Positions 15,147-58,021 of a stretch of 64,000 nucleotides of DNA are shown piece by piece. The stretch comes from a virus. Positions within the stretch are counted from its first letter, which is position 1. Each line of letters starts with the position of its first letter. Made by a program: the position numbers and the translations under genes. The DNA lies in the IMG/VR virus record IMGVR_UViG_3300027804_000039, positions 64,001 through 128,000 of that record, one strand, 5' to 3'. Under the pieces are notes generated by a model. That model was not told the DNA's origin and did not search any database. It was given only the letters and a program-made list of their open reading frames with translations.

Positions 15147-15175
15147 ATTTTAACACAAGATGTTAATAATGTCAA
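15147..15175 (-). promoter_or_regulatory. sigma70-type promoter
   Basis: TTGACA-17 nt-TAAAAT, TG-containing spacer end. Confidence 0.7.
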
Positions 15176-15405
15176 TACAATTTTGGTGGTAGACTTTCTT
15201 TTTCGAGTTTCTTTTTCCAACGAGCTTTGGCTGCTCCTTTGGCACGTTTACGAGCTGTTGTTGGCTTTTCATAAGACTCTTTTTTGCGGAGTGTGTCCAA
15301 CACACCCGAGTCTTCAACCTTACGCTTAAATCTGCGTAAGGCTTGGTTAATATTTTCATGATCCTTGACAGTTATGCCTGTTCCTTTAGATTTCTGATTC
15401 ATCAT
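15172..15405 (-). CDS. rpsU: 30S ribosomal protein S21 (bS21)
   Basis: ITVKDHENINQALRRFKRKVEDSGVL..LRKKESYEKPT..RKR. Start reassigned to MMNQK at 15405. Confidence 0.88.
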   Translation of the reverse strand: MMNQKSKGTGITVKDHENINQALRRFKRKVEDSGVLDTLRKKESYEKPTTARKRAKGAAKARWKKKLEKESLPPKLY

Positions 15406-15802
15406 CGTCTTCGTTGTCCTCTTCTTCTGTAAATTGATTAACAATACCTTCTAAATCCCAAATCCTATTTTTACTAATAAGATTGTATGGAGTAGTTTCG
15501 TCTAATGTTATATAGTGTGCGTTTGGTTGTGCCAATAAAAAAGTTACAAAGTTTTTTGTAACAGGGTCACAGTTGTCCACGTCTATAACAACTACATCGA
15601 CTTGCTGGGCTACACTAAGCATCCATGCAATATCTGTTTCGTTTTCATCAAAAATAAAAACATTCAAATCGTCAATGCTTCTACTTAAAATAGTTTGAAA
15701 TTGTTGTTTAACACTATTAGAAGGCTTAACTAGCAGATAACTTAAATTCAAATTAAAAAGTTTATCTGGCGGAGTTATTAGAGTTATTTTTCCTAAGTTC
15801 AT
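15386..15802 (-). CDS. Hypothetical protein
   Basis: 138 aa ORF in operon orientation with acidic C-terminus. Confidence 0.6.
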   Translation of the reverse strand: MNLGKITLITPPDKLFNLNLSYLLVKPSNSVKQQFQTILSRSIDDLNVFIFDENETDIAWMLSVAQQVDVVVIDVDNCDPVTKNFVTFLLAQPNAHYITLDETTPYNLISKNRIWDLEGIVNQFTEEEDNEDDDESEI

Positions 15803-16097
15803 ATATTCTACTTACAAATTCTCTTAGTCGTTCCTGACTATAATTGGCAAACTTTGGGCCTTTTGTTTTAGTTTCTTCTACGAAATCGTACAACGCCGGG
15901 TCTGTAAATTTGTCTATGATTAAATCTTTAAAATTATCCTGTCCGTAGATTCTGTACATTTCGTCTTTTGGTTTAATGCTAGAACGGTTTATTCTTGCCC
16001 AAAGTGTTTCTTCTGACTGTTCACCGTTCTGTACATACCCTTCTACGATCTGTTCTTTATTTCTATCTGTCCCTGCGTGTTCTTGGTCATGTATGTC
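15762..16097 (-). other. Open -1 frame extension of the 16043-17179 gene, reachable via the A9G slippery site at 16097-16106
   Basis: After TCA AAA AAA AA(A/G) the -1 frame reads DIHDQEHAGTDRNKEQIVEGYVQNGEQSEETLWARI...MYRIYG...NSAR* (111 aa). A stop lies about 45 nt upstream in that frame, and the first ATG (15959) has no SD. Confidence 0.6.
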
Positions 16098-17179
16098 TTT
16101 TTTTTTGAATCTTCTTCTGGAGGTAAGTCGACGGGCAACTCTTTTACTTTAGATTCTTCTTCCACTGCCTTTTCTGCTTCGGCAATCATTTGATTCCATT
16201 GCTCAACAGATACACCTTCGATTGATGATTGTTCTTCTACTCTACTTTGAATCCTGGCTTCGGCTTCTTTTAAAAAGTCTTTTTCCAGTTCAACTGTGGG
16301 TTGAGCAATCACCGGTTCAATTCGTTTTTCTTCTTCTTTTACAATAAAGGGCCACGGTGTTTGAAGTGATGGCTTTTCAGAAACTTCTTGTTGTGTTTCC
16401 TCAACAGGCTCGAGACGATTTTGTCTATGCCATTGGAACGTCATTTGAGCGGCTAGGAGCATTATAACCGCTAATGGATCGAATACAATAACAATTAAGA
16501 TAATGACCCAAGTAACTGCCTTCTCGAGCATGTTTACATCTTCGCCTTGTTCTCCATAGATAAACTTGGCAATATACTTTAATGGACCGACCTCTGCTTC
16601 CACCTTACGTACTTCAGCGGCGATGGGTGCCCGTTCCTCACTAAGTTTGGCAATAGTTTTCTGTTCGGCTGTGATCTCAGAAAGTAATCTAGTGCGTTCT
16701 TTGGCCTGCCCTCTACGGAGCGCAACTGCCTTGTCCGCACCTTTTTCGTCTTGACTTCGACCCATAACTTGGTCCACAGCCTCATCCATTTGTTTGAGTG
16801 CTTTGCGATTAGCATCGATATTTTCCTTTGCTGTTTTAATCTTTTCATCATAGACAGCAATCTTACTTTGAACATCACCGCTAACTAAGTTTTGGTCGTT
16901 GTGTGCTTTTGATAGAAAGCCGAAGATACCCATCGACGTGATTATCATTAATACTACAACTGCTGAACTCATGTAGTATTTCATGAAACGTGGAGCACGT
17001 TCCCAGTTGGCTTTTAGCCACGATGCACATACTAGTTTAGCAACCTCTAGTGTTGTTCCCATTACAATAATAGGAATTACAGCCGCAGAGAAAATAGCGG
17101 CCAAACCTACTACGGAGTAGTAGATTGCGACCGCCGAAATTGTTAAACCAGTTAGTAGTAGTAACCAGGCTAGTATCAT
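16043..17179 (-). CDS. Membrane protein with N-terminal TM helices, coiled coil and second TM region
   Basis: Hydrophobic N-terminus, coiled coil, LIVIVFDPLAVIMLL segment, acidic tail. Confidence 0.7.
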   Translation of the reverse strand: MILAWLLLLTGLTISAVAIYYSVVGLAAIFSAAVIPIIVMGTTLEVAKLVCASWLKANWERAPRFMKYYMSSAVVVLMIITSMGIFGFLSKAHNDQNLVSGDVQSKIAVYDEKIKTAKENIDANRKALKQMDEAVDQVMGRSQDEKGADKAVALRRGQAKERTRLLSEITAEQKTIAKLSEERAPIAAEVRKVEAEVGPLKYIAKFIYGEQGEDVNMLEKAVTWVIILIVIVFDPLAVIMLLAAQMTFQWHRQNRLEPVEETQQEVSEKPSLQTPWPFIVKEEEKRIEPVIAQPTVELEKDFLKEAEARIQSRVEEQSSIEGVSVEQWNQMIAEAEKAVEEESKVKELPVDLPPEEDSKKKTYMTKNTQGQIEIKNRS

Positions 17180-30198: not shown

Positions 30199-30525
30199 TT
30201 ATTTGCCCAGTTTGGTTGCACGTTTAGCCATTTGGCTAACAACGCCAGAGTCTTCTTCTCCGCCTACTTCTGGTTTTTGTTTTGCGTCTTGAGTTTTTAC
30301 AGTTACACCTGCACCGTCAAACTTTACAACAAGATTGTGTAAAACTTGTTGTTCTGGAGGTAGACCTTCTTCCTCTTCCCAACGCTGTGCAAATGCTTCA
30401 TAAGAAATTGGGATGCCCATATTTTGTAGGGCACCCCAAGTCATTGGTGCTTTTGTTTGTTGATTGTTGCCTGCGCTTTGAGCCGTGAATAATGTTCTTA
30501 CTAACGGATCAATAGTTTCAATTAC
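30199..30525 (-). other. Open -1 frame extension of the 30522-31523 gene, reachable via the A9G slippery site at 30525-30534
   Basis: TCA AAA AAA AAG TAA in frame 0; the -1 frame reads VIETIDPLVRTLFTAQSAGNNQQTKAPMTWGALQNMG...KLGK* (108 aa). The internal ATG at 30444 lacks an SD. Confidence 0.65.
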
Positions 30526-31523
30526 TTTTTTTTTGATGCTAACAACATGCCTAGTCTACGACTATACTCAATGCTTTCTCTTTTTTCTCTGCCTACTTCT
30601 GGTGCTGGAGGTGTCATTTCTTCTCCGCCTGGCATGCCGCCTGGTGCTGGAGGAGCTTCTGCTCCAAGTTCATCACCTAATCCTGCTGCTGCTTGATCCA
30701 TTGGACCTGCTGGAGCTCCCATAGTTGATACTTCACCGCCTGATACAATTGAAAGTGCGTTTGATAGGCCTTGACGGCTAGTTTCTAGTGCTGTGTAAAT
30801 TGCTTCTAATGCTGGCTTTACTGCCTCTTGATATGATTGGGCTACATCACTGCCCTGTGTTTCTCTTATAGAGTCTAATAATTCTAATAGCTGTTCAGCT
30901 TTCATTGCCGCTACGTCTTCTAGCCAACCAGTAATACGGTCGACCATATCTTTAGTAGCCATGATAGTTTCGGCTTTGCTTTCTTCGCCTTCCAAAAGCA
31001 TCCAACTTGCTCGGCTTTCATTAATATCGTAACGAATCTTTAGTTCTGCCTTTAGTTCTTCTTTGTCAGCTTCGCCTAACTGAATTCTTTTTAGAGCACT
31101 CTCGATCCAGCTTTCAGGAACAGATTCGCTCATTGCACGTTTACGGATAGTTGCCCAGTATACGTTCTCGCCTTTTTCTTTGCCGTATTGTTTTTTCATA
31201 GACGCCTTCATATCTGACTTGTCTGTTTTCTTCTTAATATCTTTTTCTTTGCTTTTTTCAGCTGGTGTCATTTCGCGTTCTAGAATCTCTTGATTAATGC
31301 AATCTAGCATTAAACGTGTTTTTTGATACTGTGGGCTTTCAAGCACAGAATCAAATGCTTCTGAAAGCTCCATTTGACTTAGTCTAGTGCGAAGCTTGTT
31401 ACGTGCATCTTCAAGTTGCACGTCTGAAAACTGTTCGAAGTTAATGGTATAGCCAAACTTCTTAGCTAGGTTTTCATTTAGTACCTTTGAGGTAATTGGT
31501 TTTTGAAATTCTCTAATTTGCAT
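30522..31523 (-). CDS. Late head-associated protein (possible prohead core/scaffold)
   Basis: TATAAATA at 31550-31557; MQIREF N-terminus; acidic helical body, P/G/A-rich linker, ends SKKK. Confidence 0.55.
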   Translation of the reverse strand: MQIREFQKPITSKVLNENLAKKFGYTINFEQFSDVQLEDARNKLRTRLSQMELSEAFDSVLESPQYQKTRLMLDCINQEILEREMTPAEKSKEKDIKKKTDKSDMKASMKKQYGKEKGENVYWATIRKRAMSESVPESWIESALKRIQLGEADKEELKAELKIRYDINESRASWMLLEGEESKAETIMATKDMVDRITGWLEDVAAMKAEQLLELLDSIRETQGSDVAQSYQEAVKPALEAIYTALETSRQGLSNALSIVSGGEVSTMGAPAGPMDQAAAGLGDELGAEAPPAPGGMPGGEEMTPPAPEVGREKRESIEYSRRLGMLLASKKK

Positions 31524-42546: not shown

Positions 42547-42930
42547 TTAGAATCTCCCTTGTACTGTATGAGCAATCATATCAGCCTGTTGAATTAATAT
42601 CTTCTTTTTGATTTCACAGTATGTAGGACTTACTGGTCCTTTGGCTGTGCGATCTACCATTTCTTTTACAGAGTCTTGCATTTTACCCACTGGCACAATT
42701 ACATCGCGTGTTGGTTTGCTTTTTGCATATATGTCAAACCATTCAATCTTTTGTGATAGGTCTTTTGACTGTTGTGCAATGTCGCCTTTACAATCAAAGT
42801 TACGAGTTGTTTGTTGTATTGATGTTATTGACTGGCTTTGGTTTGCATCCCAGCGAACTGGAATCCAATCTTTGATTGTGCTACAACCAGTTAAACTAAA
42901 AACTGCAAGAATTACTAATAGTTTCTTCAT
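42547..42930 (-). CDS. Lipoprotein
   Basis: MKKLLVILAVFSLTGC lipobox. Confidence 0.75.
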   Translation of the reverse strand: MKKLLVILAVFSLTGCSTIKDWIPVRWDANQSQSITSIQQTTRNFDCKGDIAQQSKDLSQKIEWFDIYAKSKPTRDVIVPVGKMQDSVKEMVDRTAKGPVSPTYCEIKKKILIQQADMIAHTVQGRF

Positions 42931-44165
42931 TTCTTTTTTGCCCTCCCGGCTTTCATGTTAGCTAACCAATGTGCTAATTGTCCTTTGCGGCCGCCTTGCT
43001 TGGCAGTCTTGCGTAAACTGCTTACGCTGGCTTTGGTATTGATACCGTGACGTTTAGCATCTCCTTTGTCTTGTGGATTACGGCCATCTGCAAAGTTTTC
43101 TTTTAGATGTAAAAATGTATCAGCAAACTCTTTACACATATCTCTTATGGAACTATTTTCAGTTTCCATAATATTAAAATCTCTGTGTTCTTCTTCTTGT
43201 GTTGGATCCATATAACCTGCATAAACTTTCTTAACACCATGCTGGTTAATTAGTTCTGTACAGTCTTCACCATAACGTTCGTCCATGTGTTCGCTACATG
43301 GACTGCAAGTGGTAATAATAATACTGCCTGCTGGAATGTCTCCGTACTGTTCTACATATCTGTCAATGGCTACACGTTCTGCGTGTCTACGTTTGCCGTT
43401 GGGTGCTGGAAGATTAATACCTTGTACAAGATTGTTGTCGTTATCCAATACTGCGGCTGCTACCATTCCATATTTGTCAGCATCTTTCTTTTGCCCTTTT
43501 ATTACTAAATCTGCAAGTTCAGAAAGAATGTTGTCTAACTTTTCATAATTATGTATTTCGTAGTCGTCTTGGTTTTCAATAACTTGTGTACTGCCGGTTG
43601 GTCCAACATATAAAGCACGGAAATCAACTTGTGGGTATTCTTTTTTAAGATCTTTAAAGACTTTTAAGTTGCTCATTGAATCATCGTACAAACGAACATG
43701 CCCGTACTGTCTTGTGTTTAAGTATTTGCGAACCCATACAGCTTTTTTATAAGCAGGAGCTTCGTTGCCTGGCAAGTTACCAGCACGATGTACATGGACA
43801 CGACTCATGTCAATGCCTAGGTCTTGGAATGTTTGCAGAAACGTTTCTTTGTCATCAAAGTCTGCACGAGCAGTAAGCATGATAACTTTAGCATTACCCG
43901 CATGACTTAGTATGGTTTTTAGTTTTCGTATCATTGGAGCAATTGGTTTGCTTTCTTGACGAAACTTTTCAGCATTTCTAAATTCACCAAAGTCAAATTC
44001 TTCGCCAGGAGCAAGTTTATAGTTATTAAACTCTTGATTAGTTAGTGTTCTAACTACTTGTCCATTTTGCACAACTTTAATTTTTGCAGTCGTATGCAAC
44101 AACGTATCATCTATATCAAAGATGATTAAGTCTCTGTTACCAGGTGTAAATTCATTTGCTCTCAT
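42927..44165 (-). CDS. HAD phosphatase - zinc deaminase fusion with basic tail
   Basis: FDIDDTLL (HAD motif I), LTAR, LYDDS; then HAERVAID...TCSPCSE...DC (CDA-fold deaminase); start MRANEF at 44165. Confidence 0.7.
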   Translation of the reverse strand: MRANEFTPGNRDLIIFDIDDTLLHTTAKIKVVQNGQVVRTLTNQEFNNYKLAPGEEFDFGEFRNAEKFRQESKPIAPMIRKLKTILSHAGNAKVIMLTARADFDDKETFLQTFQDLGIDMSRVHVHRAGNLPGNEAPAYKKAVWVRKYLNTRQYGHVRLYDDSMSNLKVFKDLKKEYPQVDFRALYVGPTGSTQVIENQDDYEIHNYEKLDNILSELADLVIKGQKKDADKYGMVAAAVLDNDNNLVQGINLPAPNGKRRHAERVAIDRYVEQYGDIPAGSIIITTCSPCSEHMDERYGEDCTELINQHGVKKVYAGYMDPTQEEEHRDFNIMETENSSIRDMCKEFADTFLHLKENFADGRNPQDKGDAKRHGINTKASVSSLRKTAKQGGRKGQLAHWLANMKAGRAKKK

Positions 44166-44331
44166 TTGGTGTCTCTGGTGGGCAACAGAATCTAGGATCG
44201 CACCAATCGCTATAGTCTTGGCCAGCATAGCCGCCATAAGCAAGACTCATGCTGATACTGTACATAACAAGTCCTGCTACAAAATTTTTAGTGAGGGCTG
44301 TAAGGGTTTCTTGGACGGTCATAGCCATCAT
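44152..44331 (-). CDS. Small peptide with hydrophobic leader and Cys/Pro-rich tail
   Basis: GGAGG SD; MMAMTVQETLTALTKNFVAGLVMYSISMSLAYGGYAGQDYSDWCDPRFCCPPETPNESK. Confidence 0.45.
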   Translation of the reverse strand: MMAMTVQETLTALTKNFVAGLVMYSISMSLAYGGYAGQDYSDWCDPRFCCPPETPNESK

Positions 44332-44365
44332 CCTCCGGGTAAACTGGATAATCGTTTGGGTTCAT
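44288..44365 (-). CDS. Possible 25-aa peptide
   Basis: MNPNDYPVYPEDDGYDRPRNPYSPH*; TAATG coupling to the nuclease stop codon. Confidence 0.35.
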   Translation of the reverse strand: MNPNDYPVYPEDDGYDRPRNPYSPH

Positions 44366-44811
44366 TACTGGCACCAGCTTTGTTTTGCATCGCCGTAATA
44401 TTCGCGAGCAAAGCCGTTGGCAATTAGTGCTGCACGTAAACTCTGTCCGTTAACTAAAATGTCCCCAAGAACACGACCACCAAACTTGTCCCATCCGTAG
44501 AGTGTAGCTTGAAATTTACCGCCACTGGCTGCGGCTTGGGCGATTGCATTTTTAGTAAAAGCAGATGCGGCTTCTCCTCGTTGTGCTTCGCTAGGGCATT
44601 GTGCTCTGTGCCCTTTTTCTGGTGTGTCAACTCCGTAGACTCTAACAGCAAGTTCTGGCTTAAGAGGTGGTGGTAAAAAGGGAGCGGCGATAACAACTGT
44701 ATCGCCATCGCTCACTCTTAGTATTTGTGCGTCATATGTAACGCCTTTGGGTGCTTTTTGTGCTAATGCTAGTGTTGGAACTAGCAATAAAAGTGTTAGA
44801 AACTTTTTCAT
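44365..44811 (-). CDS. Secreted thermonuclease (SNase family)
   Basis: Signal peptide; VSDGDT, VRVYGVDTPE, DKFGGRVLG, LIANGFAREY; late box at 44837-44842. Confidence 0.88.
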   Translation of the reverse strand: MKKFLTLLLLVPTLALAQKAPKGVTYDAQILRVSDGDTVVIAAPFLPPPLKPELAVRVYGVDTPEKGHRAQCPSEAQRGEAASAFTKNAIAQAAASGGKFQATLYGWDKFGGRVLGDILVNGQSLRAALIANGFAREYYGDAKQSWCQ

Positions 44812-44866
44812 TATGAAATCCTATATTAACAGCTAATATTTATCGTTGTGTTTGAATATCATTTGA

Positions 44867-44894
44867 TAAAAAAGCCCACTGTAAAAGTGGGCTT
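44867..44894 (-). terminator. Rho-independent terminator
   Basis: AAGCCCACT-TTTAC-AGTGGGCTT followed by a T run. Confidence 0.8.
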
Positions 44895-44916
44895 GGTATC
44901 GGATTAATAACTGCTA

Positions 44917-45366
44917 TTAACCGTCTGTGTCGCTGTCGCCGATCTGACCAATCAACAAGAGTATTTCTGCACCGCCTAGGGCAGTACGTACTGCATCTCG
45001 TAGTATAGTAATAGTACTGCCTTCGTTGAGGAAAGTAGTACCCGCATCGTAAGGGATACTTGAATCTCTACACATTATAGTTAAACGATTGCTGTCACTG
45101 GTACAGCCTACTTCATAGACTTCGCAGTACTGTTGCACTGCCTGTACTGCTAGGAATACATCGCTGTTCTGTGACTGGAAGTCACTGGTAATGCTGTAGT
45201 TGTCTGCGTTAGTGCTGTCGTTAGGTGCCCATGCAGTATTACCGCTAGGTAATGTTTCCCCGTTGGTATTTAAAATTATGGGCGTAATTTTGGGTGTTCC
45301 TAGTTCACTACTAGGAATAACTCTCCTAGTGTTTTGACCTAGGTCTGAATTGTATAAATCTGGCAT
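44917..45366 (-). CDS. Small late protein; paralogue of 34479-34880
   Basis: Late box 45396-45401, AGGAG SD, own terminator. Confidence 0.6.
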   Translation of the reverse strand: MPDLYNSDLGQNTRRVIPSSELGTPKITPIILNTNGETLPSGNTAWAPNDSTNADNYSITSDFQSQNSDVFLAVQAVQQYCEVYEVGCTSDSNRLTIMCRDSSIPYDAGTTFLNEGSTITILRDAVRTALGGAEILLLIGQIGDSDTDG

Positions 45367-45409
45367 AATACTCTCCTATATGCATATTTGTAAAGTATTT
45401 AGCCGTATT

Positions 45410-45844
45410 TTAAATATAATTGTTGAACCAGCCTATCTTACGACCTTCTTCAATGCGTCGATCATGTTCGGCAACAGAGGAAGGATAACGCCAAGCCCAA
45501 ATGGCAACAAGGGCCATAAAAATACCAGTATATACCAATCCACGGGTAGGAACTCCTGTAAAATACATTATCAAAAGACTGGTACTCATCATGGCCAACA
45601 TGAAGTATTTCATCTTTTGTGGGAATACTCGCTTCTCGCCCCAATTGGTAAGAAACGGGCCAAATAGTTTATGATTGTACAGCCAGGCATGCATACGGGG
45701 ACTGCCTTTGGCAAAGCAATATGCTGCAAATACCACAAAGGGACTATAGGGTATGCCGGGTGTTACCACACCGACATACGCTAGACCTAGGCTACAAAAG
45801 CCTAGGATTTTCCAAAACCACTGTTTTAAATATATTGTAACCAT
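45410..45844 (-). CDS. ybaN: YbaN/DUF454 family inner membrane protein
   Basis: GVVTPGIPYSPF..FAAYCFAKGSPRMHAWL..HKLFGPFL.NW. Confidence 0.8.
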   Translation of the reverse strand: MVTIYLKQWFWKILGFCSLGLAYVGVVTPGIPYSPFVVFAAYCFAKGSPRMHAWLYNHKLFGPFLTNWGEKRVFPQKMKYFMLAMMSTSLLIMYFTGVPTRGLVYTGIFMALVAIWAWRYPSSVAEHDRRIEEGRKIGWFNNYI

Positions 45845-46338
45845 TCATCGAACCTCACGTTGAAGCCTTGCTTCTTACGCTTATTTACAAGTTCGAAGTA
45901 CTCTGGCTTGTAAGGTTTGATTTTAGGTTTGTGGGTATGGGTCTTATCAGCTTTATCAGCATTACATGGACCGCAGGCCGTTACACAGTTTTCCCAAACA
46001 GTCTTACCACCTTTTGAGATTGGATGTACGTGGTCCAGAGTAGAATCTTTACGCTCTACTTCGATACCACAGTACTGGCATGCGCCGCCATCTCGTAGGT
46101 ATACATTACCGCGGCTAAAACGAACGGCATGTTTTGGTTTCATATAATCTCTTAGCATGATAACGCTAGGAACTTGGGTTTCCCAACGGGCAGATCTCAC
46201 GATCCAATTCTCATGCCAAGACAGTACATTGGCCTTATCTAAGACCATGTAACGGATTGCTTCCTGCCAATTGATAGTGCTCAAAGGCAAGTAGCTAACT
46301 GGTTGTCCATCAGCGTTCAAGACTAGAGTGTCTGACAT
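45826..46338 (-). CDS. HNH endonuclease (McrA-like)
   Basis: LVLNA, VYLRDGGACQYCG, TLDHVHPISKGG.TVWENCVTACGPCN..K. Confidence 0.9.
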   Translation of the reverse strand: MSDTLVLNADGQPVSYLPLSTINWQEAIRYMVLDKANVLSWHENWIVRSARWETQVPSVIMLRDYMKPKHAVRFSRGNVYLRDGGACQYCGIEVERKDSTLDHVHPISKGGKTVWENCVTACGPCNADKADKTHTHKPKIKPYKPEYFELVNKRKKQGFNVRFDEWLQYI

Positions 46339-46417
46339 GTTATTTCCTTTTCAGATGTGTTACAGACCCATCCTAAGAGCTTAATTATAAGCTCATATTG
46401 TACTTATGTCAACTGGT

Positions 46418-46966
46418 TTAAGCGAATAGATTTTGGGCAAATTCTAGTCCAGAACGATCAAGGGCTTTGCACCATTGATCCTTTTCGTCCGAACCAAAAA
46501 CCATTTCTTCGTCTGCACTGGCAATGCACCAACTGTGTTGTTCATTCCAGGGCGGAGTTCCTTTGATTTCTGCTGCTAATTGTCCGGGTGCCCAACCGGA
46601 TAATCCTAAAAACATTCTCCACTGCTCAGGAGCATCTCCCATGGCCAATCTTGGAAGAATATCGTCTGCGGAACTTAAACAAAACGTGTCGTCTATTTGT
46701 AAAGTGTTTTTACTAATCCAATCGTTTGTGTGTAATAAGCACAAACTCTTAGTGTTGACAGGTCCGCCTACATAAACAAAACCTGGTACATCAATAGCGA
46801 AGCCTAGTTGGTCTGCAAACTCAACTACGCTTAGATTACTTCTTCTGTTCAGTACTAGACCAACACTACCTTTATTATGATGTTCAGTTATCATGATAAC
46901 TGCTTTGTGCCAGAAGTTTCCCTTTAATGCAGGGGGTGCAATTAAAATGTTGCCGGTTAAGTTCAT
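46418..46966 (-). CDS. YqgE/AlgH family protein
   Basis: ILIAPP, GSVGLVLNR, YVGGPV, LGLSGWAPGQL..EI...SW; start MNLTG at 46966 right after TAAATA. Confidence 0.85.
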   Translation of the reverse strand: MNLTGNILIAPPALKGNFWHKAVIMITEHHNKGSVGLVLNRRSNLSVVEFADQLGFAIDVPGFVYVGGPVNTKSLCLLHTNDWISKNTLQIDDTFCLSSADDILPRLAMGDAPEQWRMFLGLSGWAPGQLAAEIKGTPPWNEQHSWCIASADEEMVFGSDEKDQWCKALDRSGLEFAQNLFA

Positions 46967-46979
46967 GAAATATTTATTT

Positions 46980-47666
46980 TTACTTGCTATAGAGGTGAGC
47001 TTCTTTGGCACGTTGTCTTGCTTTGTTCTCTGCATCTCTTGGACGTTCAAAATGTTTACAGAACCAGTAAGTTGCTTCTTCTGGTGAATTAAATTTCATA
47101 GCTGCGAATGCAGGACCTTTTCCTATTGAAGACGATAGTGCAAAGTCTATCTGTCCCTTCCAGTTGGTTTGCCACTTGCCTGGCCCACCACAAGCTTCTA
47201 CCATTGAACTAAAAAATCCTTTGCCGCTAAAGGTTGCATCATGAAACATAAACAACCCGCCACTAGGACCTTGACTGGCATCACTGTGTACCCAACGCCC
47301 TGGTTGCCAACCACTTTCCCATTTGCAGTTTACTACCATAGCAACAGCATGATTAAAACTTAATTTGCTTGCGATGTAAGAACGCATCTCTCGCCAATCA
47401 ATCTTATCTTTAGAGCTAGGACCGTATTGTTTCATTTGTGCAGGTGTTGCTCCAACAGGTGTATATCCGTTTGAAACAGTTGACGATGACTTGTTTATCG
47501 TAGCATCACCTGGTTTGTTTGTTGGCTTGTTTGTTGGCTCACTGTTTGTTTTATCGTCTGATGTTGGAAGTTTTGGAAGGCCAAGCGATGCCAGGCCGCC
47601 TTTGTCAGTACCAATCAACATTTTTACGAATGTATCAAAGTTTTCGTTAAACTCGTTAAATCTCAT
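46980..47666 (-). CDS. Phage tail lysozyme-like (Phage_lysozyme2) protein
   Basis: AVAMVVNCKWESG, GGLFMFH, QIDFAL, EATYWFCKHFERP. Confidence 0.65.
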   Translation of the reverse strand: MRFNEFNENFDTFVKMLIGTDKGGLASLGLPKLPTSDDKTNSEPTNKPTNKPGDATINKSSSTVSNGYTPVGATPAQMKQYGPSSKDKIDWREMRSYIASKLSFNHAVAMVVNCKWESGWQPGRWVHSDASQGPSGGLFMFHDATFSGKGFFSSMVEACGGPGKWQTNWKGQIDFALSSSIGKGPAFAAMKFNSPEEATYWFCKHFERPRDAENKARQRAKEAHLYSK

Positions 47667-47669
47667 AAT

Positions 47670-48218
47670 TTATCCAACATTTTTCATAGGGTCAACGGGT
47701 TTACCCGCAATATACTTTGACCAGTGTAAGTGTGGACCTGTGCTGTATCCTGTGTTGCCACTTAGACCAACTACTTGTCCTTTCTTAACTTTTTCTCCAG
47801 GCTTTACTTTAACTTGACTTAGGTGCATTAACTTGTGTTGAGCGTTGCTAGAATTGATAGCAACCATGATGCCTGCATCACCACCCCAACCTGCTTGCCA
47901 CACAACTCCATCGTCTGGAGCAACGACAGGAGTCCCGATAGGAACAGCAAAGTCTGTACCGTAATGCATGCCACTAGCTCTTCTACCAAAGCCACTGCTT
48001 ATAGGACCTTTAACTGGTAATCCACTTTTTATATCTGTTCTAATTTGCGGTGTAGTTTTACTGTCAGGATTAAACGGATTATTATCAAACTCAGTAGACT
48101 GAGGTTGTGTTGGTTTATCTACAGGTGCAAACGCACCAAAGCCAACTTTTCCATTTCCAATCAAGGCCTGAACAAAGCTGTCGTAATTTTCTGCAATTGA
48201 AAATTCTTTAAAGCGCAT
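47670..48218 (-). CDS. M23 family peptidase
   Basis: ISSGFG.R, HYGTDF (HxxxD), GNTGYSTGPHLH. Confidence 0.9.
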   Translation of the reverse strand: MRFKEFSIAENYDSFVQALIGNGKVGFGAFAPVDKPTQPQSTEFDNNPFNPDSKTTPQIRTDIKSGLPVKGPISSGFGRRASGMHYGTDFAVPIGTPVVAPDDGVVWQAGWGGDAGIMVAINSSNAQHKLMHLSQVKVKPGEKVKKGQVVGLSGNTGYSTGPHLHWSKYIAGKPVDPMKNVG

Positions 48219-49060
48219 TATTGTCCCTTGCGTGTTCCGTAGTCTGGAAGTGGACCACCGTACTTACGTCCCTTAATACGCTTGCCGCCAACTTTAATTC
48301 GAACCTTTCTCTCACCCGCTGTAATCAAATGACTCTTCTCACCGTCACGAGCACGTAGTCCCTGGCTCTTACACGATGCCAAGTTACTTGCTCCTAAATC
48401 CTCGTCTGGTGTTGAACTTTTGCAAAGTTGTCGACTGGCCTTTTCTAAAACTGTTTCCATTTCGGCAATATCCATCATCTTGCCTTTGTGCTTTGTATCG
48501 CCTTGCTTGGCAGCTTTCTTTTTATCTTTGTGTGCGCCTGCACCTGTATTGATAGCATTCTTAGCTACAAAGTTACGTGGCTTAGGTGCTTCTTGTTTTT
48601 GTGTTTTGCTTTCTTCTACACTTTCATTTGGCACACAGTTACGCACGGTCTTACCATTCTTGCCCTTCTTAGTGCCGGCAGCATGATATCCAGACCAGCA
48701 CTTGGTAAAACCGTTACTGTCCTTCTGGCCTTTCTTGATTTCGTCTAACTGCTGTTCTAACTGTTGAATATCCTCTTCACAGTTCCAACGGCGTAGTGCT
48801 TTTGCTTTAGGAGTTGGGCGGCCTTTTTCGTCCTTCATAGGGCCTTTATTGCCTGACATACGAGCACAGAAGCTCTTGCGGCGTTTGGCGGCTTTACTAC
48901 CTTTCTTCAGCTTACTTGGTTTAGTAGTAACCGCTGTTTGTAGTTTACTGCCAGGGTTTTCGCGACGGTATGCATTTACAGCTTTTTGGCTTAGTCCGTC
49001 TGTTTTATCTTTTTTGTTGACCTTGTTCCAGTCTTCGTTTAGGATATCTTTTGCTCTCAT
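48218..49060 (-). CDS. Lys/Arg-rich modular late protein
   Basis: Several short basic, Cys-containing modules; late box 49082-49087. Confidence 0.65.
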   Translation of the reverse strand: MRAKDILNEDWNKVNKKDKTDGLSQKAVNAYRRENPGSKLQTAVTTKPSKLKKGSKAAKRRKSFCARMSGNKGPMKDEKGRPTPKAKALRRWNCEEDIQQLEQQLDEIKKGQKDSNGFTKCWSGYHAAGTKKGKNGKTVRNCVPNESVEESKTQKQEAPKPRNFVAKNAINTGAGAHKDKKKAAKQGDTKHKGKMMDIAEMETVLEKASRQLCKSSTPDEDLGASNLASCKSQGLRARDGEKSHLITAGERKVRIKVGGKRIKGRKYGGPLPDYGTRKGQ

Positions 49061-49093
49061 AGTACTGCCCAGTTAATACTATATTTATTAGTA

Positions 49094-49912
49094 TTACTGA
49101 GCAAGGTACTCAAATACATTGAGCCATTTACGTTTGCCTATGGTAGCTTTTAAATTAGTCAAATCTGCTTTAGTTTTGTGTCTAAAGCGGTTTTTCTCTT
49201 CGTCTGGGACGGGTACGAACTCAATAGGTACACCTTCTTGTTCTGCTATCTCTTCAGCAATATCTAAGAAGCTGTGGGCAAGGCCGCTACCAACATTCCA
49301 TATTCCAGACCCATTAACTTGTTTAATGAAGTCAATGTGTAGACGGCAAATATCACCAGCGTAAGTCCAATCACGGTAAACATGTTCTGCGTTCTCCCAT
49401 ACGGTTATCTTACCTTCTTTGCGAGCTTGTGTGCGCCACTTGTGTATAGCATTTGCTCTACGTCCTCTGAGATGCATCCAGCGTCCGTAGGCGTTAAAAT
49501 AACGGAACCCTTGCACCATTATAGTAAATTTTTGTTGAAACACCCAACGATCAAATAGATACTTGCTCCAAGCATAAGGAGTCTGTGGATGACAAGCAGC
49601 ATGTTCACTAAAGTTGTTGGTGTCTCCGTAGACTGAGCTTGAACTTGCGTATTGTAAATGTGTTCCATGATGATTGCACTCGTTGAACAACCACTGACTA
49701 AACTCGTAGTTCTGTTTCATAACTAGATCTACATCTGTTTCAGTCATGTCAGCAATAGCACCTAGGTGTATTACCCATTGGTACTTAGAAACGTCTGGCA
49801 AGTCGTTAGGATCGTATTCCCATCCTTCGACTTGCCATCCTTCCTCTTGGTTAAGCCACGTAGTCATGTTCCTGCCCAGGAACCCTTCGTGACCAGTTAC
49901 TAGGACTTTCAT
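49094..49912 (-). CDS. NAD-dependent epimerase, ADP-L-glycero-D-manno-heptose 6-epimerase (HldD/RfaD)-like
   Basis: VTGHEGFLG, HLGAI, YASSSSVYG, YAWSK, FRYFNAYG, RDWTY, NVGSG. Confidence 0.8.
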   Translation of the reverse strand: MKVLVTGHEGFLGRNMTTWLNQEEGWQVEGWEYDPNDLPDVSKYQWVIHLGAIADMTETDVDLVMKQNYEFSQWLFNECNHHGTHLQYASSSSVYGDTNNFSEHAACHPQTPYAWSKYLFDRWVFQQKFTIMVQGFRYFNAYGRWMHLRGRRANAIHKWRTQARKEGKITVWENAEHVYRDWTYAGDICRLHIDFIKQVNGSGIWNVGSGLAHSFLDIAEEIAEQEGVPIEFVPVPDEEKNRFRHKTKADLTNLKATIGKRKWLNVFEYLAQ

Positions 49913-49920
49913 GTAACTAT

Positions 49921-50340
49921 TTACTTCCGATAGTCCTCATTAATGATAGTTTTCTTAGCATGACAAACAAAGCACAAACTGCGGACGTTTTCTTTAGAAT
50001 CGTCTCCACCGTCTGCTTGCCTGTGTTGGTGATCTCCATGCATAAGAACCCGGGCTACTCTGCGTTTCACCATTTCGTCTTCAATATCTGCTAGACGAGG
50101 ATCTTCTAACGCATTGTAACCGCACTCGTCACATACCCAGTTCCTATGGAATGTATGCGGACGATCAATTCGACCCATGCCTCCATATTCACGTTGCATG
50201 ATTTGGTGCTCTCTACATAGCACATCGCTACCAGGACCCTCAAATTGACTGACGGGCTCTCCGCAGACTTTACAGACTTTGCCTAAGTCGCGTTTCATTT
50301 GAGCAGGATTTTTAACTACATCGAATTTATAGTCTCTCAT
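49921..50340 (-). CDS. Zinc-binding HNH endonuclease
   Basis: CxxC pairs; GDHQH..ADGGDDSKENVRSLCFVCHAKKT. Confidence 0.75.
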   Translation of the reverse strand: MRDYKFDVVKNPAQMKRDLGKVCKVCGEPVSQFEGPGSDVLCREHQIMQREYGGMGRIDRPHTFHRNWVCDECGYNALEDPRLADIEDEMVKRRVARVLMHGDHQHRQADGGDDSKENVRSLCFVCHAKKTIINEDYRK

Positions 50341-50343
50341 AGT

Positions 50344-51501
50344 TTACTCCAAATCCGAAGCCATTGGTCTATAAGGGCTATTGCTATCTGATGTAGGAAC
50401 AGCTTTAGTCATACTCTTCTTGAGTTGTGCAACCATGTAAGGGAAACCATGCACTGGCTCTTTCTTAAACTTGCCTGGATAGACAGAACTAGAAAAGTTG
50501 TTATGCCAGTTATGATATGCTCGACTTGCTTTAATCCAGAATGTGCCGTTAGGATCAAACTCGCATTTCCAATGCTTATTAATTGTGTTATACAATTCTT
50601 TCACATAAGCATCGTCGATTTGAACATTGCACAGACGAGCACGTTCAAAGAAGTGTGCCATCATCACAAGTTCTTTTTCCTCTACAGGACGTTGTAGTTG
50701 TGTTGCCAACATCAGATACTTTGACAACCACTTAACGCTTTCTGGCATGAGCTTGTTAATTTCATTCAAACGACTAATTGCACCTGGTTCTTCATGGTCG
50801 TTGAACTTTTTAGCAGTGACGAACAAGCCGTATTGTTCTATGTAGCGTTGCTTTTCTTCTGTGGCAATCCATGCAGGATTCTTTGCGCCATCGATGCGTA
50901 CACCAAAAATCATTTGTTGCCACAAGTCAATGGCCTCGAGCATCTTTTTGCCTTCTTTACTGTTAAGACTAATAAAGTTAGCTCGCATTTCGGCTTTAAG
51001 GTTACTATGGTATAGGTTTACCGGAACGTAAATCTTATCAAAGTCTTCTTCAAATAATTGGGTAGCAATGAGCCAAAGTAATACTATAGTATGCTGCCCG
51101 TCCCAAGCTAGATATTCTTCTTTTTGGGCGTCTGGACGATACACTTGAATTGGCACAACCATAGTGCTGGCAAATTGATTAAGAAGTTTTAGTACCCAAA
51201 AAATATCCAATTGACGTTGCATTGTACCGTCAATCTTAATACAACTCATAATGACCATTTTGGCTTCTGCCAAATTCAAGTCTTTCCAAGTTTTATAATG
51301 GGGATTGCGTCGACGGAATTCTGCTTTTGCTTGTTCAAGCAAATTGTCGACAATTTCTTTGTTATACGCTGACAGGTCTTTGTATGTTTCGTCCCATCGT
51401 TGTTTGATAGAACGAACATGACTCTTAGTGCTAGAGTATTGTGCGTTTTTAATTGCGGCGGCAGTCTTCACAGCCGTATTGAGGGTTTGTAAATTCATCA
51501 T
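50344..51501 (-). CDS. Hypothetical protein with ParB/Srx-like motif
   Basis: IDGTMQR...YLAWDGQHT; AAGGA SD. Confidence 0.5.
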   Translation of the reverse strand: MMNLQTLNTAVKTAAAIKNAQYSSTKSHVRSIKQRWDETYKDLSAYNKEIVDNLLEQAKAEFRRRNPHYKTWKDLNLAEAKMVIMSCIKIDGTMQRQLDIFWVLKLLNQFASTMVVPIQVYRPDAQKEEYLAWDGQHTIVLLWLIATQLFEEDFDKIYVPVNLYHSNLKAEMRANFISLNSKEGKKMLEAIDLWQQMIFGVRIDGAKNPAWIATEEKQRYIEQYGLFVTAKKFNDHEEPGAISRLNEINKLMPESVKWLSKYLMLATQLQRPVEEKELVMMAHFFERARLCNVQIDDAYVKELYNTINKHWKCEFDPNGTFWIKASRAYHNWHNNFSSSVYPGKFKKEPVHGFPYMVAQLKKSMTKAVPTSDSNSPYRPMASDLE

Positions 51502-51564
51502 TATATGTCCTTTCTAAACGGTTTGATGATTAATCCGTTCGACGCATTGTCGTCCGGTATGCTA

Positions 51565-51593
51565 ATTGTATTGCCGAAGCAATCGAGTGTCAA
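51565..51593 (-). promoter_or_regulatory. sigma70-type promoter
   Basis: TTGACA-17 nt-TACAAT. Confidence 0.75.
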
Positions 51594-52738
51594 GTCTTTT
51601 TAAAGATATAGATGCCTTCAAACTTTTCGACTTTGTCCATTTTGCCGTTACCTACGCCGGGGCGTGTGTTCAGCATCATTTGTACTGTTTCTTTGTATTC
51701 AAATCCGCACTTCTTAGACAGCTCTAGCCAACGTTCTACAATTTGGAACTGTGTTTTGTTTACACGATAGTCGGCTATGTTTACAGCATATAATCCGTCT
51801 TGTGCTAGGCCTTTGTGTAACATTTTAAGTGTTGGCTCTACATATAATTCAAACCACGCATCTACATTGTCACACTTATTCATACATTGTGTAGGTTCGT
51901 CACAATATGTTTCTAAGTTAAAGTAAGGAGGGCTACTAAATGCAGCATCATATGCACCTGCTTCAGGATCAAAGTCTTCTGATACAGTATGGTGCATTTC
52001 ATACGTTGTACCAATAGTATCGTTAATTAAATCGCCTAGAGCAACTAACCCGTTATATGTTTTGGTATTTGGATCTATACCTGTGTAGTGATATCGCATG
52101 TTGCTAGTCATAGCACCAATCATGCGGCCACCATATCCACTACTAAAGTCTAGCACACGGCCCCACATGGTAGGACAAATATATTCCCAAATGGCTTTGG
52201 CATTTAATGGTTTGAAGTTTTGTATTGTGCCACCATTGGTCAATTCCAATGCACGGCGTATATTTTGTGGAATAACTGCTTTGTCGCCTTCATCCCTGTG
52301 CTGGTAACAAATCTTAATAGCACGTTTGAGCTTTGAGTCGTTATGGAAACGACTGTCCAAACTTACATTTCTTGCACCTAGTGTATAGGCTTCCTGCATA
52401 TTAGGAAACCAAAAGCGGCAGAAACTTAATCCGCCTGTAGCACCTACACTGATGCGTCCGTTCCTAACTTCTGTGTGTTGTTGATTGACTGTGCGAATCT
52501 CTTGTTCGCATCCTTGTTCATTAAAATAGAATATTGGAAGTATGTCTTTTGCTCTATAGATATCAAATACTTCTTGTTCTAATTGTTTGCGGCCTAGTTC
52601 GTCTCTAGATAGCCATTCTTGTTTTGAACAGCTAATAAGTTTATCCATAACATCTTCGTATCCAGTTGAAGATGCGTCAGTTGAATTGAAGTTCCAACTG
52701 TTTGAAAGGTAGTTATGGTAACTCTTCCAACTAGTCAT
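51590..52738 (-). CDS. DNA amino-methyltransferase (N4-C/N6-A)
   Basis: RVLDFSSGYGGR (SAM motif I), FSSPPYFNLE (motif IV). Confidence 0.85.
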   Translation of the reverse strand: MTSWKSYHNYLSNSWNFNSTDASSTGYEDVMDKLISCSKQEWLSRDELGRKQLEQEVFDIYRAKDILPIFYFNEQGCEQEIRTVNQQHTEVRNGRISVGATGGLSFCRFWFPNMQEAYTLGARNVSLDSRFHNDSKLKRAIKICYQHRDEGDKAVIPQNIRRALELTNGGTIQNFKPLNAKAIWEYICPTMWGRVLDFSSGYGGRMIGAMTSNMRYHYTGIDPNTKTYNGLVALGDLINDTIGTTYEMHHTVSEDFDPEAGAYDAAFSSPPYFNLETYCDEPTQCMNKCDNVDAWFELYVEPTLKMLHKGLAQDGLYAVNIADYRVNKTQFQIVERWLELSKKCGFEYKETVQMMLNTRPGVGNGKMDKVEKFEGIYIFKKT

Positions 52739-52920
52739 TATCTAGATTCTGGTAGTTGTCTAAATCTAGATAAGAAGGCTTCTTGTCTACAAGAGTGCTC
52801 TTGTAATGTACGTGTGTTGATGTATTCTACCCAAGGATCGTTTTCGTCATTCTTATTGAAAATAGCCTTGATTTTAAAAACAGTGCCTTCATTTCCGCTG
52901 TACAAATCATTTAATTTCAT
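52738..52920 (-). CDS. Small hypothetical protein
   Basis: Coupled to neighbours; CRQEAFLSRF. Confidence 0.55.
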   Translation of the reverse strand: MKLNDLYSGNEGTVFKIKAIFNKNDENDPWVEYINTRTLQEHSCRQEAFLSRFRQLPESR

Positions 52921-53207
52921 TATAACATCCTAATCAAACCAATAGTGTCAATGGTTGTCAACAAGAGGTAGTTAGCCAGCATGCCAAACGATTTCCTAGT
53001 ATAAGCAGCCCAGCCGTACATGGCACAGCCAGCAATCCAAATAGGATAGAGTACCAAAAGTGGTGGATTGGGTACCGTAGCGGCCATAGTGATGCTACAA
53101 CCGATGCTGATAGCCCAAGCAAGCAGCTCAACAACAAAACGAAAAGGACTACTGCGCCAGTCATCTTTTATCCAATCTAATGTGGGTTTAAAAATTGTAT
53201 CGATCAT
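52920..53207 (-). CDS. Small membrane protein
   Basis: Three hydrophobic segments. Confidence 0.65.
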   Translation of the reverse strand: MIDTIFKPTLDWIKDDWRSSPFRFVVELLAWAISIGCSITMAATVPNPPLLVLYPIWIAGCAMYGWAAYTRKSFGMLANYLLLTTIDTIGLIRML

Positions 53208-53218
53208 AGTGTAGTTAT

Positions 53219-53247
53219 TAAAAAAGCCCCAACCTGTGGGGCTTTTT
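53219..53247. terminator. Rho-independent terminator
   Basis: AAAAAGCCCC-7 nt-GGGGCTTTTT. Confidence 0.8.
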
Positions 53248-53275
53248 GACTTTGGGATAGGCCTACCCTCTTCAA

Positions 53276-53548
53276 TTAAAGAGTGATACCCATTGCCTTT
53301 GCTTTGTAGCCTAATGCTACGATTTCACGTGAAGGCTTACCCATAACATACTCAGTTACTGTAACACCGTTACCTGCTGTGCGGCTGTTGGTGTAAACTG
53401 CATAACCGTTTGAACGGATGCGGCTTGCTTCAGCAGCTAGGTTCTTTACACCGAAACGCTTTGCGGCTTGTGCGGCAGTTAGCTTTTCGCCATTGTAAAG
53501 TGCGGTAAAAACTTTGTATGTCTTAGTCTCTGGGTTAAAATATTTCAT
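53276..53548 (-). CDS. Helix-turn-helix protein (conserved in T4-like phages)
   Basis: LTAAQAAKRFGVKNLAAEASRIRSNGYAVY; AGAGGA SD. Confidence 0.6.
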   Translation of the reverse strand: MKYFNPETKTYKVFTALYNGEKLTAAQAAKRFGVKNLAAEASRIRSNGYAVYTNSRTAGNGVTVTEYVMGKPSREIVALGYKAKAMGITL

Positions 53549-53617
53549 TTTATTATTTCCTCTTTTAGTTTATGCTGAAATCTATCAGCTAAAAATAGTA
53601 TATAATAACTAGGAATA

Positions 53618-53977
53618 TTAAACAAGTTCTTTGGCAGGATCGCCGTGAGGAATTAAGCCAAAAAACTTCTTACCAGGAAATCGTTTTTGGGCTTGTTCCA
53701 ATAACTCTGGGAGGGATTTGCCTTGTGCAACAAATTGGTCTGTGTCTTTGATGAACGCATAAAGTTCGTCACCGTGTCTTTCAATTTGAAGTTCGGTACC
53801 GTTTTTCTGTTCGTCAATTTCTGATTCTTCTTTTTTATTAATATTCTTAATTTCTTGCAGAAGTTTAATAAAATGGTCTGGGTCGTTGCCTAGTCTGGAT
53901 AGGATAGTAACACCACGTGAAATCCAACCAGCCCAAAAGCCCAGTGCAATGATAACCAAAGTAGTCAAAAGTTCCAT
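53618..53977 (-). CDS. Hypothetical protein with N-terminal TM helix
   Basis: AAGGAG SD; FVAQGKS..EL...RFP. Confidence 0.6.
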   Translation of the reverse strand: MELLTTLVIIALGFWAGWISRGVTILSRLGNDPDHFIKLLQEIKNINKKEESEIDEQKNGTELQIERHGDELYAFIKDTDQFVAQGKSLPELLEQAQKRFPGKKFFGLIPHGDPAKELV

Positions 53978-54002
53978 AAGGATTCTCCTTGTGTACGTTA
54001 GA

Positions 54003-54332
54003 TTATTTAATCAATTCCAAGTTCAAAATCTTTGCTACTCTAGCACCCACATCTTCTCCGCTAGGAATAACATACGTTTGGCTATCGTGTCTGTCTGTAC
54101 GAGTGTCATATCTGCGTACATTAAGAATTCGTCCGCCTACTGCTGTAGACAACTCAAAAGTAATACGATCCTCGCCCTCGGCGCGGCCCTTTTCGATTGC
54201 CATTGCTGTTCCCACTTGTAATCCCCTATGTGCTTTCGTTTTGTTAATGTAAATGTCTTCTTCGTATTTTTGGCTATTGTCCCACATATTACGAACTTTG
54301 CCGTATAGCCAACGATCAAACCACTTCATCAT
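54003..54332 (-). CDS. Hypothetical protein
   Basis: AGGAGA SD; AVGGRIL.V..YD. Confidence 0.6.
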   Translation of the reverse strand: MMKWFDRWLYGKVRNMWDNSQKYEEDIYINKTKAHRGLQVGTAMAIEKGRAEGEDRITFELSTAVGGRILNVRRYDTRTDRHDSQTYVIPSGEDVGARVAKILNLELIK

Positions 54333-54522
54333 CGGGCTCTCCTACAGGCTTTTCAATTCCAATTTTGCCTCGGCCCATGGCAATGTTAGCAAGGATTTGT
54401 GTCTTGCCTTCAATCCATTGTTGTTCAGTTAGTGAATGTAAACCGATACACTTACCTGTTGGACTGCGGCCACATCCGCATTTACCAAATTCCTCTGTAT
54501 TCTCAGTTGCTCTTACTTGCAT
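54316..54522 (-). CDS. CDGSH-like iron-sulfur/zinc finger small protein
   Basis: CGCGRSPTGKCIGLH (C-x-C-x2-S-x4-C-x-G-x-H); GGAGG SD. Confidence 0.55.
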   Translation of the reverse strand: MQVRATENTEEFGKCGCGRSPTGKCIGLHSLTEQQWIEGKTQILANIAMGRGKIGIEKPVGEPDDEVV

Positions 54523-54781
54523 TATCTGCCTCCTTAATAGTGTTGAACAAATTTGCTTTTTGTTCTTTAAACTTCTTCCAACTTGCCCTAATTGAATCTA
54601 TAAGAAACCATTTGGTCATATAAAGAAACGGAACCATAATTGTAAAGATAAAAATATATCTCGAAACTTCATCTGTCCTTGCGGCGGTGAAGCCCATTAA
54701 GAAAAAGTTCACAATAAAAATCTTTTGCCAAAACTCTAGTTTTGAATACTGCCATTTAACAAACAACCAAACGTCTTTCAT
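54503..54781 (-). CDS. Small membrane protein
   Basis: Two TM segments. Confidence 0.55.
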   Translation of the reverse strand: MKDVWLFVKWQYSKLEFWQKIFIVNFFLMGFTAARTDEVSRYIFIFTIMVPFLYMTKWFLIDSIRASWKKFKEQKANLFNTIKEADNASKSN

Positions 54782-55245: not shown

Positions 55246-55275
55246 AGCGTATTATAACATCGTAATGAAAGAACG

Positions 55276-58020: not shown

Positions 58021-58021
58021 G

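Follow-up and report, generated by a model that had tools for sequence, protein, structure and literature searches.

Several genes are known in which slippage on a run of A residues yields two proteins. In Thermus thermophilus dnaX, tau and gamma are made by transcriptional slippage on nine A/T residues, and runs of nine A/T are efficient slippage sites in vivo (PMC5009743). In tssM of Citrobacter rodentium and Yersinia pseudotuberculosis, transcriptional frameshifting takes place on a run of eleven (A11), and both length variants as well as their ratio are needed for function (PMC4256274). The sites of E. coli dnaX and of IS3/IS911 depend on a downstream stem-loop or pseudoknot, often along with an upstream Shine-Dalgarno (SD)-like element, and on tRNA-Lys(UUU) as the sole lysine tRNA (PMC4066793, PMC5009743). 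Here we describe a site of this kind in a membrane-protein gene found on 64,000 nucleotides of viral DNA (the window), which are bases 64001-128000 of the 191,095-bp record IMGVR_UViG_3300027804_000039. The window (about 40% G+C) is taken to belong to a large, uncultured T4-like phage from a lake, known from metagenomic DNA; its genes are mostly on the minus strand and include ribonucleotide reductase and structural genes. This one gene very probably specifies two membrane-protein isoforms by programmed recoding at a conserved A-run, because the slippery run and the -1 frame behind it are kept in dozens of related phages.

On the plus strand the site is a C at 16097 followed by T9 at 16098-16106, which on the minus strand gives GAT TCA AAA AAA AAG ACA. 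The -1 frame is closed by a TAA at 16149-16151 and from there stays open for 128 codons, up to the stop at 15762-15764 (Table 1). Standard decoding would produce a 378-amino-acid (aa) short form that ends in a conserved 17-residue tail, and a one-base change of register at the run (-1) would produce a 472-aa long form, in which the tail is swapped for a linker, the motif Y.QN.EQ...W and a four-helix domain ending in RIYELRKNN. That both proteins would be made, and in what ratio, we infer from the sequence. The 12-mer TCAAAAAAAAAG is present twice in the window, both times on the minus strand (16097-16108 and 30525-30536), against a mean of 0.07 in dinucleotide-preserving shuffles, none of which (0/100) had two copies. 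An earlier interpretation of the letters alone, the sequence-only reading, had proposed a dnaX-type -1 frameshift at this position. Its coordinates for the 378-aa open reading frame (ORF), the stop 17 codons past the site, the 111-codon -1 ORF, the upstream TAA and the ATG at 15959 were all confirmed; its product sizes of 378 and about 472 aa agree with the computed 378 and 472, and its view that the repeated 12-nt context at 30525 is not due to chance is borne out by the shuffles.

Table 1. Positions of the recoding site, its two reading frames and the second site in the window
Feature	Position	Strand	Details
Frame-0 ORF, short isoform	16043-17179	minus	378 aa plus TAG stop (16043-16045), 17 codons past AAG
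Slip site TCA AAA AAA AAG	16097-16108	minus	A9 at 16098-16106, then G at 16097; in-phase heptamers A_AAA_AAA and A_AAA_AAG
Dual-coding overlap, 17 codons	16046-16096	minus	frame 0, predicted short-form tail; frame -1, predicted long-form junction linker
-1 extension	15762-16097	minus	111 codons from GAC at 16097, plus stop 15762-15764; would give the long isoform
First ATG/GTG/TTG of the -1 frame	15959-15961	minus	ATG; no conserved start
Y.QN.EQ...W motif	15999-16037	minus	extension residues 21-33; first conserved -1 element
C-terminal helical domain, predicted long isoform	15765-15977	minus	extension residues 41-111; ends with invariant RIYELRKNN (15783-15809)
Second TCA AAA AAA AAG (site 2)	30525-30536	minus	end of a 333-aa structural-type gene (...SKKK), TAA directly after
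-1 ORF at site 2	30199-30525	minus	108 codons, without start; gene region 30199-31523

The locus resembles Thermus dnaX in its coding run of exactly nine, in that no RNA stimulator was found, in the presence of two tRNA-Lys species and in two products that would share their N-terminus. In Thermus, however, the shorter product comes from the shifted frames, both of which terminate immediately, whereas here a conserved extension of 111 codons occupies the shifted frame and a conserved peptide closes the unshifted one as well; moreover, Thermus dnaX encodes a replicase subunit, and the gene described here a phage membrane protein for which slippage is predicted. As in tssM, a gene for an inner-membrane protein is interrupted right after a poly-A run and slippage would restore the C-terminal domain. 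The tssM gene belongs to a bacterial type VI secretion system, has a run of 11 and is canonical as the full-length form in most species; across the phage clade, by contrast, the split arrangement prevails, and the short form ends in a conserved tail of its own. With E. coli dnaX and IS3/IS911 the locus shares the heptamer, its phase, the conservation of the site and an alternative C-terminus from the -1 frame, but no such stimulators were found here and the phage record encodes tRNA-Lys(CUU) too. The G/GT frameshift of phage tail assembly chaperones (Xu et al. 2004, cited in PMC10885494 and PMC5009743) is likewise a conserved phage recoding that sets the ratio of a short to a C-terminally extended form; in those accounts the protein is a cytoplasmic chaperone, with varied slippery heptamers and ribosomal frameshifting, whereas the membrane family is without a link to tail genes. 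Our literature search for such recoding in jumbo or T4-like phages found nothing. The recoding is of a known kind, in a gene family new to it, and has some unusual extras: one genome contains the same 12-mer at two sites, the extensions are interchangeable, and both phases occur.

Conservation of the site was assessed in two sets of IMG/VR relatives. A scan with the 111-aa -1 peptide returned 58 loci, 34 of them distinct (40-77% identity), with most matches beginning at residue 1 of the peptide and the extension conserved from end to end in the 58. The N-terminal 260 aa used as a seed yielded at least 592 relatives; the top 80 were retained, among them 58 distinct complete loci. The run is present in all 34 distinct loci of the first set as TCA, TCT, CCA or GCA followed by AAA AAA AAG (once AAA). 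In the second set, 49 of the 58 loci have the A-run (46 A9, 3 A8), the frame-0 tail and a -1 extension that always includes Y.QN.EQ...W; the others have A10 in the assembly (2/58), an in-frame motif and no A-run there (5/58) or no motif (2/58). The heptamer is in phase at every A-run locus (34/34 and 49/49) and its final base is G in 48/49. Thus, homologues retain the A_AAA_AAG run that the sequence-only reading had picked out (34/34 and 49/58 distinct loci), and the EGYVQN..Q...W motif to which it had drawn attention is conserved in a -1 frame that is itself conserved as protein from the frame-0 stop onward.

Several features of the alignment tie the -1 frame to the run. It opens 6-57 nt upstream of the junction in the 34 distinct loci, and in the TCT variants a TAA closes it two codons before the junction, so that in these it can be entered solely via the A-run. 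Stop codons in the -1 frame number 0 in 834 overlap codons, compared to 0.090 per codon upstream. Directly after the frame-0 stop the motif Y.QN.EQ...W is invariant, as is RIYELRKNN near the end. The Ser codon ahead of KKK is TCA in 41/44 loci, compared to a TCA share of 21% elsewhere in these genes, and the ninth A is therefore under selection; Lys codons elsewhere in the same genes are AAA in 65% of instances and other KK pairs are AAG-first in 17/22. Among the 49 -1 extensions, 36 end in the RIYELRKNN domain, 8 end after about 40 aa, 4 carry a different domain and 1 runs off the contig. Loci L107, L119, L128 and L140 have the same A9 site and motif followed by a different -1 C-terminal domain of about 110 aa (ending in ...ILKKI or similar), and the domain behind the switch is therefore exchangeable.

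The unshifted frame is conserved as well. In six clusters comprising 16 contigs the 378-aa proteins are 99-100% identical, and in homologues of 57-77% identity the 17-residue tail after KKK is conserved (TYMTKD..G.IQIKNRS type), with the frame-0 stop at the same offset. Nucleotide variability is highest at frame-0 third positions within the overlap and at -1 third positions from the frame-0 stop onward, and this switch to a -1 codon-position signature covers the 29 codons preceding the ATG at 15959. Because the frame-0 tail is itself conserved, the run is genuinely A9, with no A10 miscalled as nine; A9 is thus its functional length, and the C-terminus of the short form is under selection.

Relatives combine the same parts in other ways. 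Loci L049 and L054-L057 encode the membrane protein and the C-terminal RIYELRKNN domain as a single in-frame fusion that lacks A-run, tail and motif. A profile search of 1.84 billion representatives found this domain in 60 clusters, always at the very C-terminus, in proteins of 357-551 aa or in ragged short pieces (entries of 40-137 aa) that look like gene-caller fragments. The conserved motifs of the membrane-protein family were recognized in 12 of the 15 longer representatives inspected; representative P0125 is close to P0126 and looks N-terminally truncated, and P0139 and P0179 have other N-terminal sequence. Six long forms (P0124 plus five of these representatives) were checked at the DNA level. 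Four of the six, the diverged relatives L160-L163, show a reverse phase: they retain A9, encode the long form in frame 0 and have an intact tail, stop included, in the +1 frame. What sets reverse-phase loci apart from canonical ones is an indel just after the run, not inside it. The other two of the six (L159 and L164) are A10 assemblies. In the A10 assemblies (L142, L113, L159 and L164) the long form is a single ORF and the 17-residue tail is intact in the other frame; such runs are miscalled homopolymers or else genuine length variation within the population. In a tree of the N-terminal domain the fused forms fall in one clade; rooting on the very long branch of phage Mosig is unsafe, and no order of events is drawn from it.

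In five loci (L062, L099, L122, L133 and L153) the motif is found in frame 0. L062 (P0093), L133 and L153 have a tail-like peptide (Y-M/S-..-D-..-G-..-K) and then Y.QN.EQ...W, in one frame and without the run. Should this peptide and motif correspond by homology to the two alternative C-termini, these three would keep a peptide that is missing from the long isoform in recoding lineages. The same three loci prompted us to consider a shift at the frame-0 stop itself, which was rejected: the stop is without a slippery sequence, the -1 frame is open from the run, and the A10 assemblies read through from KKK.

An insertion of one A by RNA polymerase and a -1 slip by the ribosome yield the same long protein. 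We lean towards RNA polymerase as the main source of the slip: on the T9 template, it would add one extra A in part of the transcripts, as in Thermus thermophilus dnaX and Citrobacter tssM1, and ribosomal -1 slippage on A_AAA_AAG may contribute. The polymerase is favoured, first, because the run length of nine is selected beyond the need of the heptamer. Second, it is favoured because no conserved RNA structure was found on either side of the run. More specifically, RNAalifold on 26 loci predicted 0 pairs downstream (pseudoknots being outside the reach of the tool) and no pairs upstream, and the 107 nt downstream of the site in the window fold no better than shuffles (z = +0.48). In the upstream alignment a purine-rich GAAGA-type stretch abuts the run and no conserved GGAG-type element is found; the stretch is there because Glu/Asp codons force it.

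A third argument concerns the tRNAs. About 38 tRNA genes are arrayed at 42741-59952 of the record, upstream of and outside the window, and a survey of the whole record identified both Lys isoacceptors among them, tRNA-Lys(UUU) (ttt) and tRNA-Lys(CUU) (ctt). Two tRNA-Lys species have been linked to Thermus polymerase slippage on a run of nine (PMC5009743), and the polymerase is favoured because the phage encodes both, as in the Thermus situation. Fourth, only two homopolymer runs of nine or more exist in the 191,095-bp record (window 16098-16106 and 30526-30534), both at recoding sites, compared to about 12 expected under a first-order model, and long A/T runs elsewhere in the record seem to have been purged. 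In-phase A_AAA_AAG and A_AAA_AAA are depleted 2- to 2.8-fold in the ORFs of the phage; the polymerase is favoured because nine further in-phase A_AAA_AAG heptamers are tolerated in ORFs of the genome, yet runs of nine or more occur only at the recoding sites. Finally, it is favoured because the +1 tail frame of L160-L163 is beyond the reach of a -1 ribosomal shift; transcripts with one fewer or two more A's would reach that frame.

It is quite possible, if not what we would expect first, that the same two isoforms result chiefly from -1 ribosomal frameshifting of the dnaX/IS3 type, with tRNA-Lys in the P and A sites slipping on A_AAA_AAG or A_AAA_AAA of a homogeneous A9 mRNA. A_AAA_AAG is among the most efficient motifs in E. 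coli (PMC4066793, PMC5009743), it is in phase in all A-run loci with G last in 48/49, the depletion of in-phase A_AAA_AAR heptamers in the ORFs of the genome fits this mechanism, and at site 2 the stop codon stands directly behind the heptamer. However, heptamers of this type without stimulators give about 0.1-0.5% frameshifting in E. coli, so the motif alone stays well under 1% (PMC4066793), and no conserved downstream stem-loop or upstream element was found. In addition, the phage tRNA-Lys(CUU) should hold AAG firmly, following the reasoning in PMC5009743; the selected ninth A is unneeded by the heptamer; and the reverse-phase relatives need access to the +1 frame. Accordingly, the heptamer, its phase and the -1 ORF of the sequence-only reading stand, and its dnaX-type label may hold only in the Thermus sense and not in the ribosomal one.

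Some observations weigh against slippage by the polymerase. Either slip is predicted from DNA sequence. An in-phase A_AAA_AAG ending in G in 48/49 loci is the classic bacterial -1 heptamer, and A9G amounts to two overlapping heptamers; the conserved G can also be explained by a conserved Asp codon of the -1 frame and is for that reason non-discriminating. Three of the 49 loci have only A8, which is under the usual threshold for efficient polymerase slippage. The tRNA-Lys argument covers the phage-encoded tRNAs; RNAalifold can miss pseudoknots as well as stimulators mediated by proteins or the nascent peptide; and the reverse-phase tails rest on four sequences.

The two C-termini could instead be switched at the DNA level, the run being a replication-slippage hotspot that keeps a mixture of A9 and A10 genomes with one isoform per virion (phase variation). 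The four A10 assemblies, in which the long form is one ORF and the tail stays intact, would fit such a switch. We nevertheless consider it improbable: the split A9/A8 form is the consensus in more than 80 distinct assemblies plus the 16 contigs of near-identical sequence, the A10 cases are few and could be homopolymer miscalls, and the stable reverse-phase lineages differ through indels outside the run. Besides, one-way drift would decay one of the frames, whereas both are conserved.

An even smaller chance is given to a separate small gene that starts at the ATG at 15959 or at a non-canonical codon, with the A-run an accident of Lys-Lys-Lys. Such an ATG is present, gene callers often call short pieces of the -1 ORF, and the homologous ORF of site 2 is, in distant relatives, an independent gene with an ATG of its own. 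There, the run and the -1 ORF are conserved in L063-L072 and L076, and in L074 and L075 the run is missing and the homologous ORF stands free, its ATG overlapping the upstream stop; the downstream part of site 2 can therefore exist as a separate protein. At the membrane-protein locus, however, the 46 codons ahead of the ATG are conserved as protein, invariant motif included; the domain is fused in frame in relatives, and the A-run is conserved at synonymous sites. The Met of this ATG is not conserved and aligns with Leu in most relatives; the first -1 start codon is scattered from +60 to +273 or absent in the 34 distinct loci, and several relatives have no ATG, GTG or TTG in the whole -1 ORF. 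Starts that are absent or scattered, the closure of the -1 frame two codons before the junction in the TCT variants and the in-frame fusions agree in showing that the -1 ORF is not independently initiated, a possibility that the sequence-only reading had raised against itself.

The other such possibility, an assembly or sequencing error (or a pseudogene) concealing a true A10 and a single 472-aa ORF, is scarcely credible even though errors are common in homopolymers and A10 is found in a few assemblies of relatives. The identical split recurs in dozens of independent metagenomes, and the 17-codon tail, which shows a frame-0 codon signature, keeps its sequence, its length and the place of its stop in relatives with as little as about 57% identity.

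The 378-aa protein begins with a hydrophobic helix at residues ~2-57, read as two transmembrane (TM) segments, followed by a third segment (~66-90), an antiparallel coiled-coil hairpin (~95-210), a last TM segment (~221-248), an acidic linker and the 17-residue tail; four TM segments are thus read in all. An AlphaFold2 (AF2) model of a natural long-form relative has helices at 2-57, 59-141, 145-208 and 215-246, with a predicted local distance difference test (pLDDT) score above 90 in the hairpin. In this model, helix 59-141 runs from the membrane into the coiled coil, 145-208 is the return arm and 215-246 is the last membrane helix, after which a largely disordered acidic linker leads to a small helical C-terminal domain. 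AF2 predicts this domain of the extension as four helices (pLDDT 70-80). The positive-inside rule suggests a periplasmic coiled coil and cytoplasmic alternative C-termini and, because the C-termini are so placed, the most likely difference between the isoforms is the cytoplasmic partner that each binds.

Database searches gave no name to either part. Pfam, PHROGs and NCBIfam had no above-threshold match for the two. Tetraspanin (PF00335; 22.1 bits vs a cut-off of 32.1) and DUF4407 (PF14362; 16.5 bits vs 31.3) were rejected, the likeness being only in topology (four TM helices, the third and fourth of them separated by a large loop). A hit to an Rz-like i-spanin (phrog_312), confined to residues 64-195, was not significant (E = 0.014). 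Hits of the N-terminal domain are hypothetical proteins throughout, from Pelagibacter phage Mosig and several jumbo phages; for the extension, tblastn against isolate phages returned none. Profile searches of the PDB with alignments A4 and A2 found nothing; Foldseek against the PDB returned generic coiled coils and none below E = 0.1 (extension model, pLDDT 64; full long-form model, pLDDT 66), and the ESM Atlas returned unnamed viral clusters only.

The gene neighbourhood is stable in close relatives, where a SleB-like hydrolase, a 115-aa TM protein, a ~200-aa protein, the membrane gene, a ~140-aa acidic protein and bS21 occur in synteny; the homologue in XacN1 is placed among replication genes, and synteny is not stable there. 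A role in lysis was considered on account of the upstream SleB-like hydrolase and small TM protein and of the glycosidases flanking the Mosig homologue; weakened by the XacN1 context, it is left as a weak idea. The bS21 ribosomal protein homologue lies two genes downstream (window 15172-15444, minus strand), and syntenic genes of L159-L163 match PF01165. The -1 extension overlaps the next gene by 41 nt (window 15762-15802, minus strand). This gene (ATG at 15802) encodes 138 aa with an acidic C-terminus, has no clear SD and is syntenic in all close relatives; ribosomes completing the long form might influence its translation. A scan for promoters and terminators yielded nothing notable.

The tRNA array of the record also includes a CUA-anticodon tRNA (58841-58916), labelled 'Pyl' by ARAGORN and a possible amber suppressor, as well as a permuted tmRNA (transfer-messenger RNA). 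TAG is the rarest stop of long ORFs (14/205); it closes the frame-0 membrane gene, for which relatives use TAA or TAG.

For annotation, routine gene callers turn such a locus into a truncated gene plus a spurious small ORF, and the long isoform is consequently missing from protein databases, with the exception of the rare A10 assemblies and the in-frame relatives; annotators of jumbo phages should join these ORFs. Most of what is known about conserved recoding in tailed phages concerns tail assembly chaperones; here a recoding site is carried by a membrane family that is very common in large phages of fresh and marine waters (over 8000 homologues, at least 592 IMG/VR loci). The canonical, reverse-phase and fused arrangements, together with three kinds of extension, make the family a natural experiment that could address the need for a fixed ratio of C-termini, and polymerase versus ribosomal slippage in the presence of the tRNA-Lys pair of the phage. 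More speculatively, TCA AAA AAA AAG may be a general polymerase-slippage isoform switch of this phage clade, used in at least two unrelated genes (membrane and structural-type); in the membrane protein it would select either the 17-residue tail or the motif plus helical domain as the cytoplasmic C-terminal signal, one excluding the other, with some lineages having flipped the default and kept both; we put this forward as a tentative idea. If it is true, the ratio of the isoforms could shift during infection via polymerase fidelity or the supply of tRNA-Lys, for example from the phage's own tRNA-Lys pair.

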